DNA of 64,000 bases, from the NCBI GenBank assembly GCA_000004695.1, contig CM000150.2, forward strand, positions 3,200,001 to 3,264,000, read 5' to 3'. How positions within the stretch are numbered: the stretch's first letter is position 1; the number at the start of each line of letters is the position of its first letter. The notes beneath the pieces were generated by a model that had not been told where the DNA came from, searched no databases, and saw only the letters and a program-made list of their open reading frames with translations. Positions 19,265 to 58,400 of this stretch are shown one piece after another. The DNA is from Dictyostelium discoideum. Taxonomy: Eukaryota. Made by a program: the position numbers and the translations under genes.

Positions 19265-19380
19265 ACAATGATATAAAAATTGTCACTTTAAATTTCTTTA
19301 AATAAAAAATTTTATTTTAATTATTAAAAACAATTATTTGAACTTCAAATTATTTGAATTTGAATTTTTTTTTTTTTGAA

Positions 19381-19480
19381 TTGGATAACGCAATTATTAG
19401 TTGCTTCTCCTTGAGATGCTAGATCTCATTTTATTTTTAGTTTTTTTTTTTTTTTACAGGGTCTCTAAAAGAGGGGTTAC

Positions 19481-19521
<41 letters not shown>

Positions 19522-19814
19522 TTTCGAATTTTGAATTGTATTATTACTTTTGATTAAAACATCTTTTTTGTCCAAACTTTTTTCTAAATCTTTTTTTATT
19601 TTATCGTCTGGTTGGTGATTGATGTTTATGACGTATTTGAATTGTTTTTTTTTTAATTGAGTTTTATCCACAATTTCGCTTATTTTTTGTAGGCATTTGT
19701 GTTGCTTAATATTTGTGGTGTTGTTTGTGATTTTCATCTTATTTTCTTTCTATTTTTTTTATTTTTCTTTAAAAAGTTAAAAATCTGGAAATTTTCTGAT
19801 TGACTTGGGTTCCC

Positions 19815-19881
<67 letters not shown>

Positions 19882-20371
19882 TTATTTATAGAAAGTACTG
19901 AGTGAATTATTGTATTTTTTGAGATGTTTAGGAAGTTCTATTGCGTGAAGAGGTGAGTTCCATTGTCTGCTAAATTGTAATAGCTTCAGCGAGATTAGTG
20001 AGTCTAATTTATTTTGTTCTTCTGGCCGTTGCTTTGATTTGATTCTTAATGTTTTGTCTATAACCGCTTGTGTCCTGTCCCATGCAGCTCTTTGTGTTTT
20101 AATTAGTTCACGTATGACTTGTTGTCTGTGAATTATTATTTCTTTTTCATCGTGAACGAGTTTGTTTCTTTTGTGCCAAATTTTTTCGAATATAATAGCT
20201 ATTAAATTGGCTACTAGTGCAATTTGTAGATGGTTTAAAATCTTCACATTCCAGGTGTGAGTGGTGTGTCCACACTTAGTTAGGGTGTAGTTGAAGATTT
20301 CTTGTGTGTTTTTGATGTGGGCTTTGCAGTTGAAGAATATATGTTCTGAAGTCTCATCTTCCCCACACTTT
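19381..20371 (-). mobile_element. 5'-truncated TRE5-A (tRNA-gene-targeted non-LTR retrotransposon) 3' fragment. Reading along the minus strand, it runs from the ORF2 C-terminal remnant, through poly(A), the B-module-like segment with the ORF1 start, and the C-module, to an oligo(A) tail.
   Basis: On the minus strand the ORF2 tail reads ...KCGEDETSEHIFFNCKAHIKNTQEIF...ANLIAIIFEKIWHKRNKLVHDEKE...STFYK*. A ~70-nt A-run follows, then a segment identical to the 5' UTR and first 86 codons of ORF1 (MKITNNTTNIKQHKCLQKISEIVDKTQLKKKQFKYVININH...). Then comes the C-module ...agaccctgtaaaaa...gatctagcatctcaaggagaagcaactaataattgcgttatccaattc and oligo(A). Confidence 0.75.
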
Positions 20372-20378
20372 CATGAAT
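19882..20378 (-). pseudogene. TRE5-A ORF2 C-terminal remnant (Cys/His zinc-knuckle region), 5'-truncated.
   Basis: The open frame KCGEDETSEHIFFNCKAHIK...IWHKRNKLVHDEKEIIIHRQQ...STFYK* has no start codon. It parallels the second ORF2 tail in this window, 57066..57666 (SCKEEESSMHIFFECKSIKQ...SIWYRRNQIKF). Confidence 0.75.
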
Positions 20379-20386
20379 TCGATTTT
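20372..20386. repeat. Target-site duplication (left copy) of the TRE5-A.2-like insertion.
   Basis: catgaattcgatttt is found at 20372-20386 and again at 22772-22786, exactly flanking the element. Confidence 0.7.
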
Positions 20387-20701
20387 TTTTTTTTTGAATA
20401 ACGCAATTATTATTTGCTTCTCCTTGAGATGCTAGATCTCATTTTATTTTTTTTTTTTTTTACAGGGTCTTTTTGATTAAAACATCTTTTTTGTCCAAAC
20501 TTTTTTCTAAATCTTTTTTTATTTTATCGTCTGGTTCGTGATTGATGTTTATGACGTATTTGAATTGTTTTTTTTTTAATTGAGTTTTATCCACAATTTC
20601 GCTTATTTTTTGTAGGCATTTGTGTTGCTTAATATTTGTGGTGTTGTTTGTGATTTTCATTTTATTTTCTTTCTATCTTTTTTATTTTTCTGATTAACTT
20701 G

Positions 20702-20760
<59 letters not shown>

Positions 20761-22465
20761 TTATAGAAAGTACTGAGTGAATTATTGTATTTTTTGAGAT
20801 GTTTAGGAAGTTCTATTACGGGTGTTGATGATGATTTGTGACACCCCTTGTCCTGTTTTATCAATTGGTGCGTGGTGTGTTATTTTGTTTTTATATTGTT
20901 GATTTATTGAGTAAATTTTATTTGTTTTTATATTTGTTTCAGTTAGAAGTGCTGCGTCCAGCTTGTTGTTGTCTAAAACGGTGTTTATTATGCTGGCAGA
21001 TTGGATGGTGTTGGATCCTTGGACGTTCCAAACACCTATTCTTATTGTGTTTTTCTTTATAGTTTTATTTGGGGTAGATTTTTATCTACCTTTTGAAGTT
21101 TCTGGTTTATTTTGTCTTCTAACTGATCTTTACTTTGTTCGTTGTGTTGTTGGTCTTGTGTGTTTGTGGGGTTTTTTGATTTATTGATTTGTTTTAGAAT
21201 TTCCTTGTTGAAGTTGTCTATATCTTCATCCATTTTTGTTTTTATGCTTTTTTGTCCATATTCACCCAATTTTGGTTTGACTGGTGTTTTGTTGGTCTTG
21301 TTTGTTTTGTCTTGTTGTTTCTTTTTTGGTGTGTTTAACAATTTACTTGGTGAATCGATAATTTTCGATGGTGTACCATAGGTTGGGCTGAAACTCATGA
21401 TATGTTTTATTGGAGAGGAGAAGAACCATTGATTTGAAGGGATTGAAAGTGGGAATTCTATTTTTCTTATTGCATCAGTGTTTGGGCTGGTGAAGTCGAA
21501 GATATCATTTGCCTCTCTAAGTTTTTCTTCCGTTGTTAGTCCCTTTGTTTCGCCGTGTTGTTTTATTGGTGTATTGTATGGAGATGGTGGTTCGATAGGT
21601 TTTTCTGATTTTGTTTTAATTTCTTGATTGTTTATCGATTGTGTATTGATCTCATTCTCTATTCTTGTTAGTTCATCTACGTTTTCTAGTGATGCTTCTA
21701 TTACCTTTTGAGCTGTATCATCTAGGGCCATAAATGTTTTATCATTAGATGAGGATGTGATTGGTGGGATAATGATTGTTCTTTTTCCTTGTTTGGTATT
21801 TGTTCTGATGTAGAGTGTGGTTGTTGTTCATCTGATTGTTTTTTATTTTTGTTTTCTTCTTGATTTTCTGGTAATGAGGTTTGATCTCTCCATCCTTTGT
21901 TGGAGTGTCCAATTAATGTTAGATTGTCTAGTTCAATGATAGTGTCAAATTCTTCTACGACTCTTTTCACTGTTTTGATAATTAGAGTTTCGCCTTTAAT
22001 TTCTGATTTAATTAGTTTACATCCTTCATTTTCTATTACCCATTCTATTTCTGTGAGTGATTTATACCAATCAAAATCTGTATACATATTTTTTGGTCTT
22101 ATAGTGGTTATAAATTGTCCTTTTAATTCTGCATCAAACATATTTACAAAATAGATTACTGTACTAATACTGTCTGTGAGAATTTTGAATGTATTATTAC
22201 TTTTGATTAAAACATCTTTTTTGTCCAAACTTTTTTCTAAATCTTTTTTTATTTTATCGTCTGGTTCGTGATTGATGTTTATGACGTATTTGAATTGTTT
22301 TTTTTTTAATTGAGTTTTATCCACAATTTCGCTTATTTTTTGTAGGCATTTGTGTTGCTTAATATTTGTGGTGTTGTTTGTGATTTTCATTTTATTTTCT
22401 TTCTATCTTTTTTATTTTTCTTTAAAAAGTTAAAAATCTGGAAATTTTCTAATTAACTTGGTTCC

Positions 22466-22510
<45 letters not shown>

Positions 22511-22771
22511 TCTTTTTTATATGAAAAATGAAATAATCAAAAAAAGAGATTGTTGTTGTTGTTTGTTTTTTTCGATCTGATTATTTTTTGCTTTTTTTTT
22601 GAAAATTTTGCTACGCAAAATTCTCAAAACGAAACAAATAATAAATTACAATAAAGTAAAAAGATGGCTTTTTAAAATAGTTTATTTATTTATTTATTTG
22701 TTTTTTAAGTCTTTTTTATATGAAAAATGAAATAATCAAAAAAAGAGATTGTTGTTGTTGTTTGTTTTTTT
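20387..22771 (-). mobile_element. TRE5-A.2-like element, about 2.4 kb on the minus strand. The order is duplicated A-module, B-module with the ORF1 start, ORF1, a short 5' stub of ORF2 joined by internal deletion to the last ~60 bp of ORF2, poly(A), B-like segment with ORF1 N-terminus, C-module, and oligo(A).
   Basis: The 5' end at 22771 is 47 bp from the 5' end of tRNA-Thr at 22818. This matches the known TRE5-A integration preference of about 48 bp upstream of tRNA genes, with the element 5' end proximal. The copy is flanked by 15-bp direct repeats. Its internal structure matches the described 2.6-kb ORF2-deleted TRE5-A.2 class. The oligo(A) tail is 20387..20395. Confidence 0.8.
21057..22390 (-). 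CDS. TRE5-A ORF1 (about 445 aa), present as two overlapping frames 21722..22390 and 21057..21731. A frameshift near 21725 disrupts it.
   Basis: The N-terminal frame reads MKITNNTTNIKQHKCLQKISEIVDK...HLMIKHLWP*. The C-terminal frame reads MALDDTAQKVIEASLENVDELTRIENE...LPQIKL*. Their sum matches the ~51-kDa ORF1 of TRE5-A. The same N-terminal 66-86 codons recur at 20460..20660 and 19477..19737. Confidence 0.7.
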
Positions 22772-22776
22772 TCATG
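22508..22776. repeat. Tandem duplication with a 199-bp period at the 5' end of the TRE5-A copy (A-module duplication; the second copy is partial).
   Basis: tcttttttatatgaaaaatgaaataatcaaaaaaagagattgttgttgttgtttgttttttt occurs at 22508-22575 and again at 22707-22776. TRE5-A is known to carry about 200-bp A-modules, often duplicated. Confidence 0.7.
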
Positions 22777-22786
22777 AATTCGATTT
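22772..22786. repeat. Target-site duplication (right copy) of the TRE5-A.2-like insertion.
   Basis: catgaattcgatttt, identical to 20372-20386. Confidence 0.7.
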
Positions 22787-22817
22787 TATTCCCTGTTGAA
22801 TTAATTAATTTCCAAAA

Positions 22818-22889
22818 TGGCTCCTTAGCATAGTGGTATTGCGCTTCCCTAGTAAGGAAGAGGTCATGAGTTCGATCCTCATAGGAGCC
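22818..22889 (+). tRNA. tRNA-Thr (anticodon AGT/AGU).
   Basis: GGCTCCTTAGCATAGTGGTATTGCGCTTCCCTAGTAAGGAAGAGGTCATGAGTTCGATCCTCATAGGAGCC+T. The acceptor stem has 7 bp (GGCTCCT/AGGAGCC). The A box is TAGCATAGTGG. The anticodon stem CTTCC/GGAAG has loop CTAGTAA. The T arm is ATGAG-TTCGATC-CTCAT. No intron. Confidence 0.9.
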
Positions 22890-22923
22890 TTTTATATAAA
22901 TATAAATCTGAACCATATATCGC

Positions 22924-26603: not shown

Positions 26604-28519
26604 TTAATCAAAACCTAATTCTTTATGACGAATATATCTTAAGCATTGTACAAACATAATGACAGTTTCAGGAACACGACCTTCAACTAACCATTCACCA
26701 TTACCAATCTTTGAAACCAAAGAACCTCTTTGAGAAGACCATTTGAAGGATAATTTTGTATTTTGATTTAAGTACTCATTATTTGTTTGATCCCAAATAT
26801 ACTTTAAGAAAGGTTCATTTGAATTTGGATTATACCAAGCCAACCAAACACCATTCCATTTACCATGACCCAAGTTTCTAGTGGTATCGGATGCTGGCAT
26901 TAAGAATTGACCATTCCAATTGTATTTGATTTCTTTTGGTTTAATTGAAGTATCCAAGAAATCGGTATTAAATAAAGTTCCATCAGGACGATAAGTCCAT
27001 TCTTCGCCATGACTACTTCTAATAATACCACCAGCCATTGATTTTCTTTTATTCTCTCTATTATTTACAACACTATTACTACTACTACTAGTTGCACCAC
27101 CACCACTACCACTACCACCACCACCACCACTAGCAATACCAATAGTTTCTAATAAATTCTCTTTAATATATAAATTTATACAAGATTGATTTGTATCAAA
27201 ATTCTTTCTTGGTAAACCATCAATTGCCAACATCCACAAAGCACTTTCCTTTTCATTTGAGCCTCTAAAAATAAACTTTTGACCACCAACAATCTTTACC
27301 ATCCAACAATGTTTATATTCATACTTTGTAACTGGTGTAATTGATATGATTGAGTTTAAAGAGATTTCTTTTTTTAATTTTTTCGATTTACTCGAATGAA
27401 TTGATAATTTCTCTGGTGATAAAGTTAACCATTGTTCTTTCCAAACCACCAATGGTCCTTTTTTACCTTTTTTAATTAACATACCAGATTTATAGAGATA
27501 ATCATCTTCCTCTGGTTTATAGATTTGTGTGATATTCTCAGCAGATGGCACCAAGAATAAAGAGTTTACAAGTTCAGATGGTATATCAACCTCTGGTACG
27601 ATACCAGTTTCAATGAATTGTCTAGTTGCACGAATAAATGATGCCAAAATCGATGCTCTCTTCTCGGTGATATTTGATTTCTTAATTTCAATTTCAATAC
27701 CCAATAGTTTCTTTGCAATAATTGAAATCGATTGAGCCACAATATCCATCTCTGTCAATGAATTGAAAACTTGATTATTTTTATTTACACCATGTACATT
27801 TTGTTGTTGATTTAAATTTGAATATGCATTTGAAAATAATGGTGATGATGTATTTGATAATGATGATAATGTTGGAGAATTTAATGTTGATATTGATGTA
27901 TTTGAATTTGAATTTGAATTTGAATTTACAATTTGTTGTTGTTGTTGTTGTAGTTGTTGATTTATTTGTACAGATGATGAAGTTAATGAAGATAATGAAG
28001 AAAATGATGGAGATGGTGAAAGTATACTATCAATATTATTAATATTCCTATTGATTGGTGTTGGTGATAATGGATTATTTGTAATGATTTTACTATCAGT
28101 TTCAGAACTTGAAATCGAATCCAATGGTGATAGAATCTTTGTAATGATTTTAGTATTGGTAATTAAATAACCAAATTCAGAATTGATAATATCACCACTC
28201 GATTGAGGATTAAGAATATCTGGTAATGATAATACTGATCTTTGATATTCGCCTAATCTACCCAAAATAAATTCAGCATTCTCTATAACTTGTTTACGAA
28301 TTTGTGACATTCTTTCATTTTGAATTGATTTTCTTGATTTAACTTTATTAGTTGTTGGTGATTGATTACCACCAGGTGATAATACCAATTTATTTAATAC
28401 TGGTGATAATGAAGTTGACGATGACGATGATGACTTTGTTGTTAAACTTGGACTTGATGGTGGTGAATTTAATAATACATTTGCATGTGATGGAGATGAT
28501 GGCTCATTCTCTTTGTCAC

Positions 28520-28552
<33 letters not shown>

Positions 28553-29060
28553 AGCAACCTTTTGTTAAATATTCAGAACCAGATAATGGTGCATAGATTT
28601 TCATAACTTCATCAATTTTCAATTGCATTGATGCACGCATTGATTTTCTATGAAGTGTATTATGTTTAGTTTTATCTTTACTATTGGGTGTGTTTGTAAT
28701 ACTATTACTACTGAAACTCAATTGGTTGTTGTTATTACTATTGTTATTACTAAAGTATTTATTATTATTATTATTGTTTAATGGTGATGACAATGGTGAG
28801 GAGATATAACTTTGATTCGATGGTACTGAGGAGTGAAGTGATAAAGCATTGGTTGTTGATTTACCACCCAAATCAAATTGAATACCTTTGGATTTTTCAG
28901 ATTTTCCACCAATTATTCCACTTCTTAATGTAGCGGATCTAAGTTTACTTAATGGACTACTACTCTCTTTGGCTCCATCTAAATTCTTTCTCTTTTTTAA
29001 TCCATCTCTTGATAATTTTGACATATCATTTTTATTATTTAGTGGTGAAGCTGTTGACAT
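26604..29060 (-). CDS. PH-domain protein with a long S/N/Q-rich N-terminal region and a Trp-rich C-terminal domain of unknown type.
   Basis: 818-aa ORF. The PH-like core is YLYKSGMLIKKGKKGPLVVWKEQWLTLSPEKLSIHSSKSKK...KHCWMVKIVGGQKFIFRGSNEKESALWMLAIDGL. The C-terminus EWTYRPDGTLFNTD...KYNWNGQFLMP...GKWNGVWLAWYNPNSNEPFLKYIWDQ...GEWLVEGRV carries regularly spaced aromatic residues. Confidence 0.7.
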
Positions 29061-56780: not shown

Positions 56781-56805
56781 CGCCTTGCAAAAAAAAAAAA
56801 AAATT
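56781..56805 (-). terminator. Pol III terminator, a T16 run on the tRNA strand immediately 3' of tRNA-Ile.
   Basis: The minus strand reads aattttttttttttttttgcaaggcg starting at the tRNA discriminator base. Confidence 0.8.
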
Positions 56806-56879
56806 GCTCGATGCAGGGATCGAACCTGCGACCGTGGCGTTATTAGCACCACGCTCTGCCGACTGAGCTAATCGAGCCA
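56806..56879 (-). tRNA. tRNA-Ile (anticodon AAT/AAU).
   Basis: The reverse complement is GGCTCGATTAGCTCAGTCGGCAGAGCGTGGTGCTAATAACGCCACGGTCGCAGGTTCGATCCCTGCATCGAGCA. The acceptor is GGCTCGA/TCGAGC(C). The A box is TAGCTCAGTCGG. The anticodon loop CTAATAA gives AAT, which decodes AUU Ile. The B box is GGTTCGATCCC. Confidence 0.9.
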
Positions 56880-57009
56880 TTTTGATATTTTAGAAATAAA
56901 GTTACTCTATAAAATTAATAAATAAAAAGAAAGGAGCAGAAGAGACTATGAAATTGGAGGCCTGCAACTCTGGAATATGGCAACCAGATCCAATGCCCAG
57001 AAAGCATGG

Positions 57010-57075
57010 ATATACGAACAATACCTCAGAGAAAAAGACGACCAGAACTGCCCTCCACATATGAAAGCCTGGAAG
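57010..57075. repeat. Left arm of a ~60-bp inverted repeat that brackets the TRE5 ORF2 remnant. Its partner is at 57688..57744.
   Basis: atatacgaacaatacctcagagaaaaagacgaccagaactgccctccacatatgaaagcctggaag is the reverse complement of cttccagacttccatatgtggagggcagttctggtcgtctttttctctgaggtatat. Identity is about 92%, with a 7-nt indel. Confidence 0.8.
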
Positions 57076-57687
57076 TTGTTGCACCACCCAAGAGAGCGAA
57101 TTACTCTCAAACTAAACCAAGTCAAACCCAAATACAAAAACAAACAAAAATTAAAAGTAATCTATAGAAACATGATGGATATCAAATACAAGGGATGGAA
57201 CAAACACCAGCCAACAACAGGTCAAAAACTGATTCAAAAGAACATTAATCACCCAACTCTACCATTTAGAGAAGCCAGATCAATAACAACTATCAAAGGA
57301 AGAGACTTAGCATGGAGGTATCTACTCAAGGCACTTCCAAAACACCATGTGGAGAATTGCCACTCATGTAAAGAAGAAGAGTCGTCTATGCACATCTTCT
57401 TCGAATGCAAATCAATAAAACAGGATATCGACTCAATCTATCAAAAGGTCTGTAAAGACTCTAACAACACTTACCACGGTCCATGGAGCGAAAAAGTTCT
57501 CGGAAAACTACTCACACCATTCTCATCAAATCTGATAGGAGCCATTATGGAATCGATATGGTACAGAAGAAACCAAATAAAATTCAACGATAACACTACA
57601 ATAATAACAGAGAACCAAATAATTCATAAAATCAAAGGCTTTCCAGCATTTGATGTGAATCCTTGATAGTGAGTTTTCTTTTTCCGA

Positions 57688-57744
57688 CTTCCAGACTTCC
57701 ATATGTGGAGGGCAGTTCTGGTCGTCTTTTTCTCTGAGGTATAT
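57688..57744. repeat. Right arm of the inverted repeat, lying in the 3' UTR of the TRE5 fragment.
   Basis: See the partner at 57010..57075. Confidence 0.8.
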
Positions 57745-57757
57745 AACACCAACTACT

Positions 57758-57800
<43 letters not shown>

Positions 57801-58199
57801 ATAACAATAATAATAATAATATAATAATAATAATAATATAATAATAATAATAATAAAAAAATAAGAATAAAATAAAAAAAAAAAAAATATAAAAAAAAAA
57901 AAAAACTACAAATAAACTCTCCTAGAACACACTCAAATTGAGTGATGTTATTAAAAAAAAAAAATTAATAGATATTAAATATGCATATTACATTACTAAT
58001 TATAGTTGACACACATTTAAATAATATAATAATAATAATAATAATAATACTGTCAGCTCATTATGAATAATATAAATACTAAAGAATAATTTTATAAACA
58101 ATATTGAATATTATAAATATAAATTAATATTAAATAAAGATAACAAGGTATTATTCAATTATATAATTATTAATTATATATATTTATAAAGCTAACAAG

Positions 58200-58400
58200 C
58201 TTTATTACATTTTGGTCAGTTTTTGCTTAAAAATTTCCGCGACAGCATTTCCAATTAAAAAAAAAACTTCTGTGTATTCTAAAAAACTAACCCTTTCAGA
58301 GGCCCTGTAAATACATTACAAATAAAAGAGATATAGCGTCTCAAGGAGAAGCAACTAACAATTGCGCTATTCAATTAAAAAAAAAAAAAAAAAAAAAAAA
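58200..58400 (+). mobile_element. TRE5-type C-module-like 3' terminus with an oligo(A) tail and a short B-module-like segment before it. It is a solo 3' fragment, or the distal end of the 56930 element.
   Basis: ...aaaaatttccgcgacagcatttccaatt...gaggccctgtaaatacattacaaataaaagagatatagcgtctcaaggagaagcaactaacaattgcgctattcaatt plus an A25 run. This is about 85% identical to the TRE5-A C-module copies in reverse complement at 19395-19470 and 20396-20459 (agaccctgtaaaaa...gagatctagcatctcaaggagaagcaa(c/a)taataattgcgttat). Confidence 0.55.

Follow-up and report, generated by a model that had tools for sequence, protein, structure and literature searches.

Two TRE5-A elements stand in tandem upstream of the transfer RNA (tRNA) gene ThrAGU-9 of Dictyostelium discoideum, and we put at about 95% the probability that they are the products of two successive, independent insertions at this gene. 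The locus lies in a stretch of 64,000 nucleotides (hereafter the window; positions 3,200,001 to 3,264,000 of contig CM000150.2, assembly GCA_000004695.1, forward strand, numbered from its first letter) and comprises, on the way towards the tRNA, a 5'-truncated TRE5-A.1-type 3' end (the distal copy, 19365-20367, minus strand) and an element that we assign to TRE5-A.2 (the proximal copy, 20387-22772, minus strand, 2,386 bp). The proximal copy alone is bracketed by a perfect 15-bp direct repeat, its 5' end lies at the distance from the tRNA that is fixed for the family, and an empty allele of the site exists in another assembly. An earlier, sequence-only reading had described this structure. The observation proved real and its main interpretation is supported, apart from small coordinate errors, the wording 'nested' and the position assigned to a frameshift.

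Target-site duplication and distance to the tRNA gene

Two tRNA genes were found in the window with ARAGORN, tRNA-Thr(AGU) at 22819-22890 (plus strand) and tRNA-Ile(AAU) at 56805-56877 (minus strand); with 3,200,000 added, their positions are those of ThrAGU-9 (3,222,819-3,222,890) and IleAAU-5 (3,256,805-3,256,877) on chromosome 1 in S2 Table of PMC5391098. The end of the tRNA-Thr gene had previously been placed 1 nt short of the ARAGORN end, 22890. The 5' base of the proximal element, 22772, is located at -47 from tRNA +1 (22819), with 46 nt (a 31-nt spacer and the 15-nt duplication) between element and tRNA, and the 5' end of the element is turned towards the tRNA's 5' end. The primary TRE5-A site has been described as lying 47+/-3 bp upstream of the tRNA gene in fixed orientation, with 59-85% of copies found there, and the proximal copy occupies this textbook position and orientation, as proposed from the sequence.

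The exact 15-mer CATGAATTCGATTTT occurs twice in the 64 kb, at 20372-20386 and 22773-22787, that is, only at the two junctions of the proximal copy. The perfect flanking repeats reported earlier are thereby borne out, with the left copy where it had been placed and the right copy 1 nt higher than given; likewise, the start of the element at 20387 stands while its end moves from 22771 to 22772. The window has a guanine and cytosine (GC) content of 21%, and at this composition we estimate the chance of a perfect 15-mer at both element junctions at ~0.33^15, or ~1e-7 per register. Extended as far as the match goes, the repeat measures 18 bp, TTTCATGAATTCGATTTT (20369-20386 and 22770-22787); the three extra T are ambiguous because the proximal element, read on its own strand, opens with an A-run from which they are indistinguishable. 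The duplication is therefore 15-18 bp long, with 15-16 bp within the 10-16 bp published for TRE5-A, and duplications of 13 bp (copy L002) and 15 bp (copy L003) flank other TRE5-A copies. Since CATGAATTCGATTTT matches neither the second open reading frame (ORF2) nor the A-module, where the internal A repeat runs on with cgatctg, and with a naturally empty allele in another strain in support, the duplicated 15-mer is host DNA, in agreement with the earlier view that the repeats are flanking and not element-internal.

The features of the locus are as follows (window coordinates, strand, description and, in brackets, basis).

19365-19377, minus: poly(A) tail of the older fragment, 13 nt (sequence; homology to the L007 assembly resumes at 19356)
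19378-20367, minus: older TRE5-A.1-type 3' fragment (translation; module alignment)
19378-19525, minus: full-length C-module of the distal copy (module alignment)
19526-19818, minus: full B-module of the distal copy, beyond the A-run (module alignment)
19882-20367, minus: ORF2 C-terminus of the distal copy, ~161 codons in frame, from the zinc-finger motif (translation)
20368-20371, no strand: 4 nt (cttt) between left duplication and truncated ORF2 (comparison with the AX4 protein P0012)
20372-20386, plus: left, distal copy of CATGAATTCGATTTT (exact match)
20387-20395, minus: poly(A) tail of the TRE5-A.2 copy, 9 nt (sequence)
20396-20470, minus: shortened C-module (alignment with the distal copy; predicted small hairpins)
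20471-20756, minus: A-run and 3' B-module, with a 29-nt internal deletion relative to the distal copy (alignment)
20757-20820, minus: last 20 ORF2 codons and stop (alignment with the distal copy; tblastn)
20821-21081, minus: ORF2 5' stub, 87 codons, N-terminus of the apurinic/apyrimidinic (AP) endonuclease, overlapping the end of ORF1 (translation)
21057-22390, minus: ORF1, split in the AX4 assembly (ORF translation; identity to AX4 proteins)
22180-22469, minus: 5' B-module, with the ORF1 start codon at 22390 (alignment)
22470-22507, minus: A-run between the A and B modules, 38 nt, 35 nt in the L004 assembly (sequence; assembly comparison)
22508-22772, minus: A-module region of the 5' untranslated region (UTR), made up of X1 22707-22772, Y 22573-22706 and X2 22508-22572 (repeat analysis)
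22773-22787, plus: right, tRNA-proximal copy of CATGAATTCGATTTT (exact match; identical in L004)
22788-22818, no strand: spacer of 31 nt from the right duplication copy to tRNA +1 (sequence)
22819-22890, plus: tRNA-Thr(AGU), ThrAGU-9, the targeting landmark (ARAGORN; Rfam RF00005, 65.5 bits)

Order of the two insertions and alternative explanations

The perfect repeats flank the proximal copy alone, and the distance to the tRNA is fixed for the family, which together make the distal copy the earlier one; the left duplication copy, 4 nt from the truncated distal 5' end, likewise implies that the distal copy was there first. The order originally suggested, with an older fragment and a newer copy inserted between it and the tRNA, is therefore upheld. 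As the new copy does not lie inside the old one, which is uninterrupted, 'nested' is a misnomer and the arrangement is a TRE-TRE tandem in the sense of PMC5391098.

Both copies carry hallmarks of target-primed reverse transcription, namely tails of 9 and 13 A, the 5' truncation of the distal copy and the 15-bp duplication around the proximal one. In the first event, a TRE5-A.1-type RNA would have been reverse-transcribed at the target and 5'-truncated in the zinc-finger region of ORF2, leaving a 1-kb 3' fragment with its 5' end ~50 bp from the tRNA. In the second, full-length RNA of the non-autonomous TRE5-A.2, with ORF1 and no functional ORF2, would have been integrated at the same preferred position, so that the new copy, its 5' end at -47, came to separate the old one from the tRNA, and the old fragment was pushed 2.4 kb away. 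On the plus strand, the T-run and the antisense element come immediately after the left duplication copy; under the published target-primed reverse-transcription model, this order would correspond to a plus-strand nick after ...CGATTTT, 31 nt from the tRNA, and a cut of the opposite strand 15 nt farther on, at -46/-47, these staggered cuts giving rise to the perfect duplication CATGAATTCGATTTT. The protein contacts and the mobilisation in trans are drawn from published work: according to the literature, ORF1 protein would contact TFIIIB bound upstream of the tRNA gene, and ORF2 protein supplied in trans by TRE5-A.1 copies would nick the DNA and prime complementary DNA synthesis on the poly(A) tail.

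The two copies point the same way with just 19 nt between them, as would also be expected of a single composite insertion in which a read-through transcript of a TRE5-A.2 element carried a downstream fragment along (3' transduction). The perfect duplication, however, brackets the proximal copy only and none brackets the composite, and as the internal 15-mer is host sequence at the tRNA, the source locus would have to be this same locus; we regard this course of events as very improbable. Equally little credence is given to the notion that the ORF2 deletion of the proximal copy arose in place from a full-length TRE5-A.1 by local recombination or replication slippage. Internal deletions do happen in repeats, though nothing specific at this locus speaks for one, and the idea is contradicted by an element at an unrelated locus (L001) with identical ORF2 and B/C junctions, as well as by the literature, where the pair of deletions defines the structure of TRE5-A.2, a subfamily that is actively mobilised.

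An artefact, whether through coincidental identity in AT-rich DNA or through faulty assembly of repeated elements, has in its favour the 21% GC and the abundance of low-complexity sequence in this genome, together with the differences between assemblies in homopolymer lengths and in one frameshift. Against it stand the occurrence of the exact 15-mer at the two junctions only, the reproduction of the whole structure in the L004 assembly and an empty allele of the predicted length, leaving this explanation more improbable still than the previous two.

Several points weigh against two successive insertions, or against the evidence for them. No recognisable duplication of the older fragment was found in its flanks, where the best match, TTGAATT, is equalled by 27-32% of random flanks (p ~0.3), and it counts as an insertion in its own right on the strength of the empty allele, its position and a poly(A) tail of its own. 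The strain with the empty allele, L007, is diverged, with ~75% identity in the spacer, and has not kept the single-copy 15-mer base for base. L004 may be of the same laboratory lineage as AX4, in which case it would provide no independent evidence on age. Finally, the copies were identified from published structural hallmarks and from homology to the genomic copies L001-L004, and not from named TRE5-A.1 or TRE5-A.2 reference sequences.

The ThrAGU-9 site in other assemblies

The assembly L004 (GCA_054883475.1) carries the same tandem with the same duplications at ThrAGU-9. The locus is the same and colinear, with 99.7% identity to the window over 10,154 bp, and between 19000 and 23300 the two differ in four homopolymer lengths, in T/C at 19816, in C/A at 21815 and in an extra A at 21795. 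The long A/T homopolymers at 19514-19520, 19818-19847, 20742-20758 and 22505-22507 are 3-30 nt shorter in L004, which could represent true length variation or compression by the sequencing method. The gene model P0009 of L004 (ACTFIT_007688, 18373-19151, 163 aa) splices the ORF1 start in the proximal 3' B-module onto the distal ORF2 remnant, and this 'gene' is an annotation artefact made by the tandem.

In L007 (GCA_054859385.1), the ThrAGU-9 site is empty (L007 16294-16520), and 153 bp beyond the tRNA-Thr comes the profilin gene. Once the two elements and one copy of the duplication are taken out, the corresponding stretch of the window measures 172 nt, compared with 177 nt in L007; the alignment of these stretches is colinear and contains 125 matches, 41 mismatches and 17 gap positions. 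The expectation of an empty site in other strains was hence borne out in presence and length, in a strain too diverged to have conserved the 15-mer base for base. In L006 (GCA_054859355.1), a different full-length TRE5 element occupies ThrAGU-9 (L006 16222-22451), 46-47 nt upstream of the same tRNA, and its DNA is 78-85% identical to the element beside the tRNA-Ile of the window. The flanking non-coding DNA of L006 and L007 is ~75-93% identical to that of AX4, and these isolates are quite diverged.

Three allelic states of ThrAGU-9 are consequently seen among assemblies labelled D. discoideum, the TRE5-A tandem, another TRE5 and an empty site. They are direct evidence of recurrent independent targeting, and if this holds, the polymorphism would be a handy natural marker for dating TRE activity.

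Identity and anatomy of the proximal copy

The published layout of TRE5-A.1 is AB-ORF1/ORF2-BC, while TRE5-B and TRE5-C are without a 3' B-module; in TRE5-A.2, the order is AB-ORF1-BC, a large part of ORF2 is deleted and a further 72 bp are missing from the B/C sequence, so that of the C-module the 3'-terminal 87 bp remain. At ThrAGU-9, the modular UTRs of TRE5-A are recognisable, with A/B at the 5' end, B/C at the 3' end and C-modules at both 3' ends of the tandem. The proximal copy is without 83 nt of the B/C junction (19465-19547 in the distal copy), a stretch that includes an A-run of variable length, 7 nt shorter in L004, and it keeps 75 nt of the C-module. By its AB-ORF1-BC layout and its ORF2 and B/C deletions, the proximal element is a TRE5-A.2, in line with the 'TRE5-A.2-like' of the sequence-only reading.

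The ORF2 deletion has its junction at 20820/20821, where the 87-codon frame of the stub joins directly to the last 20 codons and stop, confirming an internal deletion that unites a 5' stub with the last ~60 bp of ORF2. An identical stub (100%) is present in L001 and L004; that of L005 (D. cf. discoideum) has 86% identity, and its frame continues to the endonuclease motifs GDFN and SDH. Across the tandem, ORF2 is represented by its ends only, the 87-codon N-terminal stub and the C-terminal zinc-finger region, for which Pfam matches were below significance, and neither copy has a reverse-transcriptase region. L001, a 5'-truncated copy at an unrelated locus of another assembly, shows 98.2% identity in 1,363 aligned positions, runs without a break through the two deletion junctions, and also has the 29-nt deletion of the 3' B-module. 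Given these identical ORF2 and B/C junctions, the deletions are inherited subfamily traits and not local events.

TRE5-A elements carry one or several A-modules. In the proximal copy, the X block (65 nt) recurs with a 199-bp period at 95% identity, giving ~1.3 A-modules, for which the published length is 200 bp. Full-length relatives share the X motif at their 5' start (L005 at 5833, L006 at ~16340), and the A-rich block CAACAACAAC...GATTATTTC...CATATAAAAAAGA opens both of them directly after the target sites; judged by this, the 5' terminus of the proximal copy is complete. Self-BLAST with low-complexity masking recovered three B-module copies with 86-96% identity (19526-19866, 20471-20759 and 22180-22518), of which the 5' B-module is 96% identical to the distal one over 341 bp and 90% identical (with gaps) to the 3' B-module of its own element; the start of ORF1 is known from the literature to lie within the B-module. 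The predicted folds of the C-modules were not distinctive (z = -0.95 for the shortened and z = -2.5 for the full-length module) and were unused as evidence, and a full-text literature search for element k-mers as published primers returned nothing relevant.

ORF1 and its frameshift

ORF1 is split in the window into ORFs of 222 aa and 224 aa. It is 98% identical to D. discoideum AX4 proteins, and as these are named 'hypothetical protein' in the database, the TRE5-A label is taken from structure and not from annotation. No significant Pfam match was obtained for ORF1, the ORF2 stub or the C-terminal ORF2 fragment; for ORF1, the literature likewise reports no Pfam family and no relatives in other TRE families, and the ORF1 of TRE5-A shares no more than 34% identity with its counterpart in the different TRE5 element of L006.

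The AX4 homologues read across the break as ...IPKQGKRTIIIPP..., and the lesion is a 1-nt deletion in an A-run, from A4 to A3 on the element strand (plus-strand T-run 21792-21794). The sequence-only reading was right that a single frameshift breaks ORF1, but its position near 21725 was ~70 bp off and corresponds only to the resulting stop codon at 21722-21724. At the same locus in L004, ORF1 is intact (444 aa), one extra A at 21795 restoring the frame, and at 21815 the C/A change gives the window His for the consensus Gln (L004 17234-17255 spans both differences). The two differences, 20 nt apart, both move the window away from the consensus of other AX4 copies.

The frameshift is not shared by the L004 copy at the same locus, and other AX4 proteins read through the break. 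Since L004 is without it, the frameshift is private to the AX4 assembly and is either a late private mutation or a sequence error. Its absence from a second assembly bears on which TRE5-A.2 copies count as intact. With the frameshift taken as an error or late mutation, the TRE5-A.2 at ThrAGU-9 might be a source element that is complete in structure (444-aa ORF1, full 5' end, C-module and poly(A)) and perhaps remains active, at a site that is also three-state polymorphic among isolates; we advance this tentatively and at somewhat less than even odds.

The distal copy

The ORF2 C-terminus of the distal copy is 98% identical to P0012, the AX4 protein DDB_G0276495. Where P0012 reads ...PCQQCGEDETSEH... 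(PCQQCGEDE), the window reads *KCGEDETSEH, so that the second Cys codon of the zinc-finger motif, at 20367, is where the homology of the distal copy begins. The copy keeps the complete B/C junction that is missing from TRE5-A.2. That a second TRE5-A 3' fragment is present had been recognised correctly; its bounds of 19381 to 20371 had not, as 19381 lies 3 nt inside the C-module, the body extends over 19378-20367 and the tail over 19365-19377. The 4 nt at 20368-20371 may be flank or non-templated additions from the older insertion, and extra nucleotides are common at TRE5-A 5' junctions (PMC5391098). Before the second insertion, the distal 5' end was 4 + 15 + 31 = 50 nt from the tRNA, the canonical distance.

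A 16-bp tandem duplication (AATTATTTGAACTTCA / AATTATTTGAATTTGA) at 19332-19363 adjoins the distal poly(A) tail, and because a similar degenerate pair is found in the empty allele of L007, it probably predates the insertions. An 11/13 match at 19355-19367 was considered as the duplication of the older fragment and rejected, as the window holds 22 such matches compared with 17 expected.

L002 8004-8718 is a further 5'-truncated TRE5-A copy, found upstream of a tRNA-Ile and flanked by a 13-bp duplication (GGTAATTTTTTTA). The sequence at which it begins, GGGGAAGATGAG, is only 3 nt away from where the distal copy of the window is truncated (TGTGGGGAAG). Such near-identical truncation points, in two of the three truncated copies examined (window, L002 and L003), may reflect a preferred truncation or joining site or may be coincidence.

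Comparison with known systems

The proximal copy resembles TRE5-A.2 (a TRE5-A derivative, formerly DRE) in its size of ~2.4 kb, its AB-ORF1-BC order, the ORF2 and B/C deletions, the 5' end ~47 bp from the tRNA and a duplication in the 10-16 bp range. Its own features, ~1.3 A-modules, the 29-nt deletion in the 3' B-module and the 1-nt ORF1 frameshift of the AX4 assembly only, are nothing substantive. The distal fragment shares with the autonomous TRE5-A.1 the zinc-finger C-terminus of ORF2, a complete B-module, a full-length C-module and poly(A), but comprises the last 1 kb only, with endonuclease, reverse transcriptase, ORF1 and 5' UTR lost by 5' truncation.

Human L1 and its non-autonomous passengers share with TRE5-A.2 the concept that the ORF2 protein of an autonomous relative is used, and yeast Ty3 shares with TRE5-A an integration guided by RNA polymerase III transcription factors. 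These lineages are, however, unrelated; Ty3 is a long terminal repeat (LTR) element with an integrase, and TRE5-A.2 keeps its own ORF1. According to the literature, TRE5-A.2 is mobilised in trans by the ORF2 protein of TRE5-A.1.

The tandem does not differ from the TRE-TRE tandems of PMC5391098, with the new copy at the canonical distance and the resident displaced, not interrupted. In that study, tandem behaviour was seen experimentally at 91/98 occupied tRNA genes, tandems without mutual disruption were typical, and tagged TRE5-A integrations were mapped at ThrAGU-9 itself with 9, 394 and 24 counts. As position, orientation, modules, TRE5-A.2 deletions, trans-mobilisation, duplication length and tandem formation are all published, the case is already known. 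The locus illustrates cleanly how retrotransposition is directed to a specific position in a gene-dense genome, and matters little beyond bookkeeping.

Other elements and neighbouring genes

A 5'-truncated TRE5 of a different family is found ~45 nt upstream of tRNA-Ile(AAU) (IleAAU-5), from 56922 onward on the plus strand (56805-58400). The zinc-finger C-terminus of its ORF2 is 34% identical to the TRE5-A counterpart, and it ends in a C-module-like stretch (58284-58378), 79-83% identical to the TRE5-A C-module, followed by poly(A); this similarity would fit the published 78% figure for TRE5-C. Within its 3' part, at 57961-58212, lies a ~250-bp repeat with TG...CA termini, 97% identical to L003 4804-5047 and 7172-7418, one of which is located 18 bp upstream of a tRNA-Arg. 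The repeat is a putative solo LTR, perhaps of DGLT-A to judge from where it lies in L003. In L005 (5021-5832), a ~760-bp insert with two LTR-like repeats stands between the TRE5-A-like element and a tRNA-Leu, flanked by a ~27-bp direct repeat (GTAATGAAACACGTATATCCAATTTGTATGG), unusually long for a target-site duplication.

A homology search with a neighbouring low-complexity ORF of 630 aa gave no match, and the 818-aa ORF at 26604-29060 is the AX4 protein veg114 (XP_646147.1), which together with the tRNA coordinates places the window on chromosome 1 of AX4. Through veg114 and its protein cluster, the orthologous loci in other assemblies were located. The neighbouring genes, 150-340 bp away, are undamaged despite two hits at one tRNA gene.

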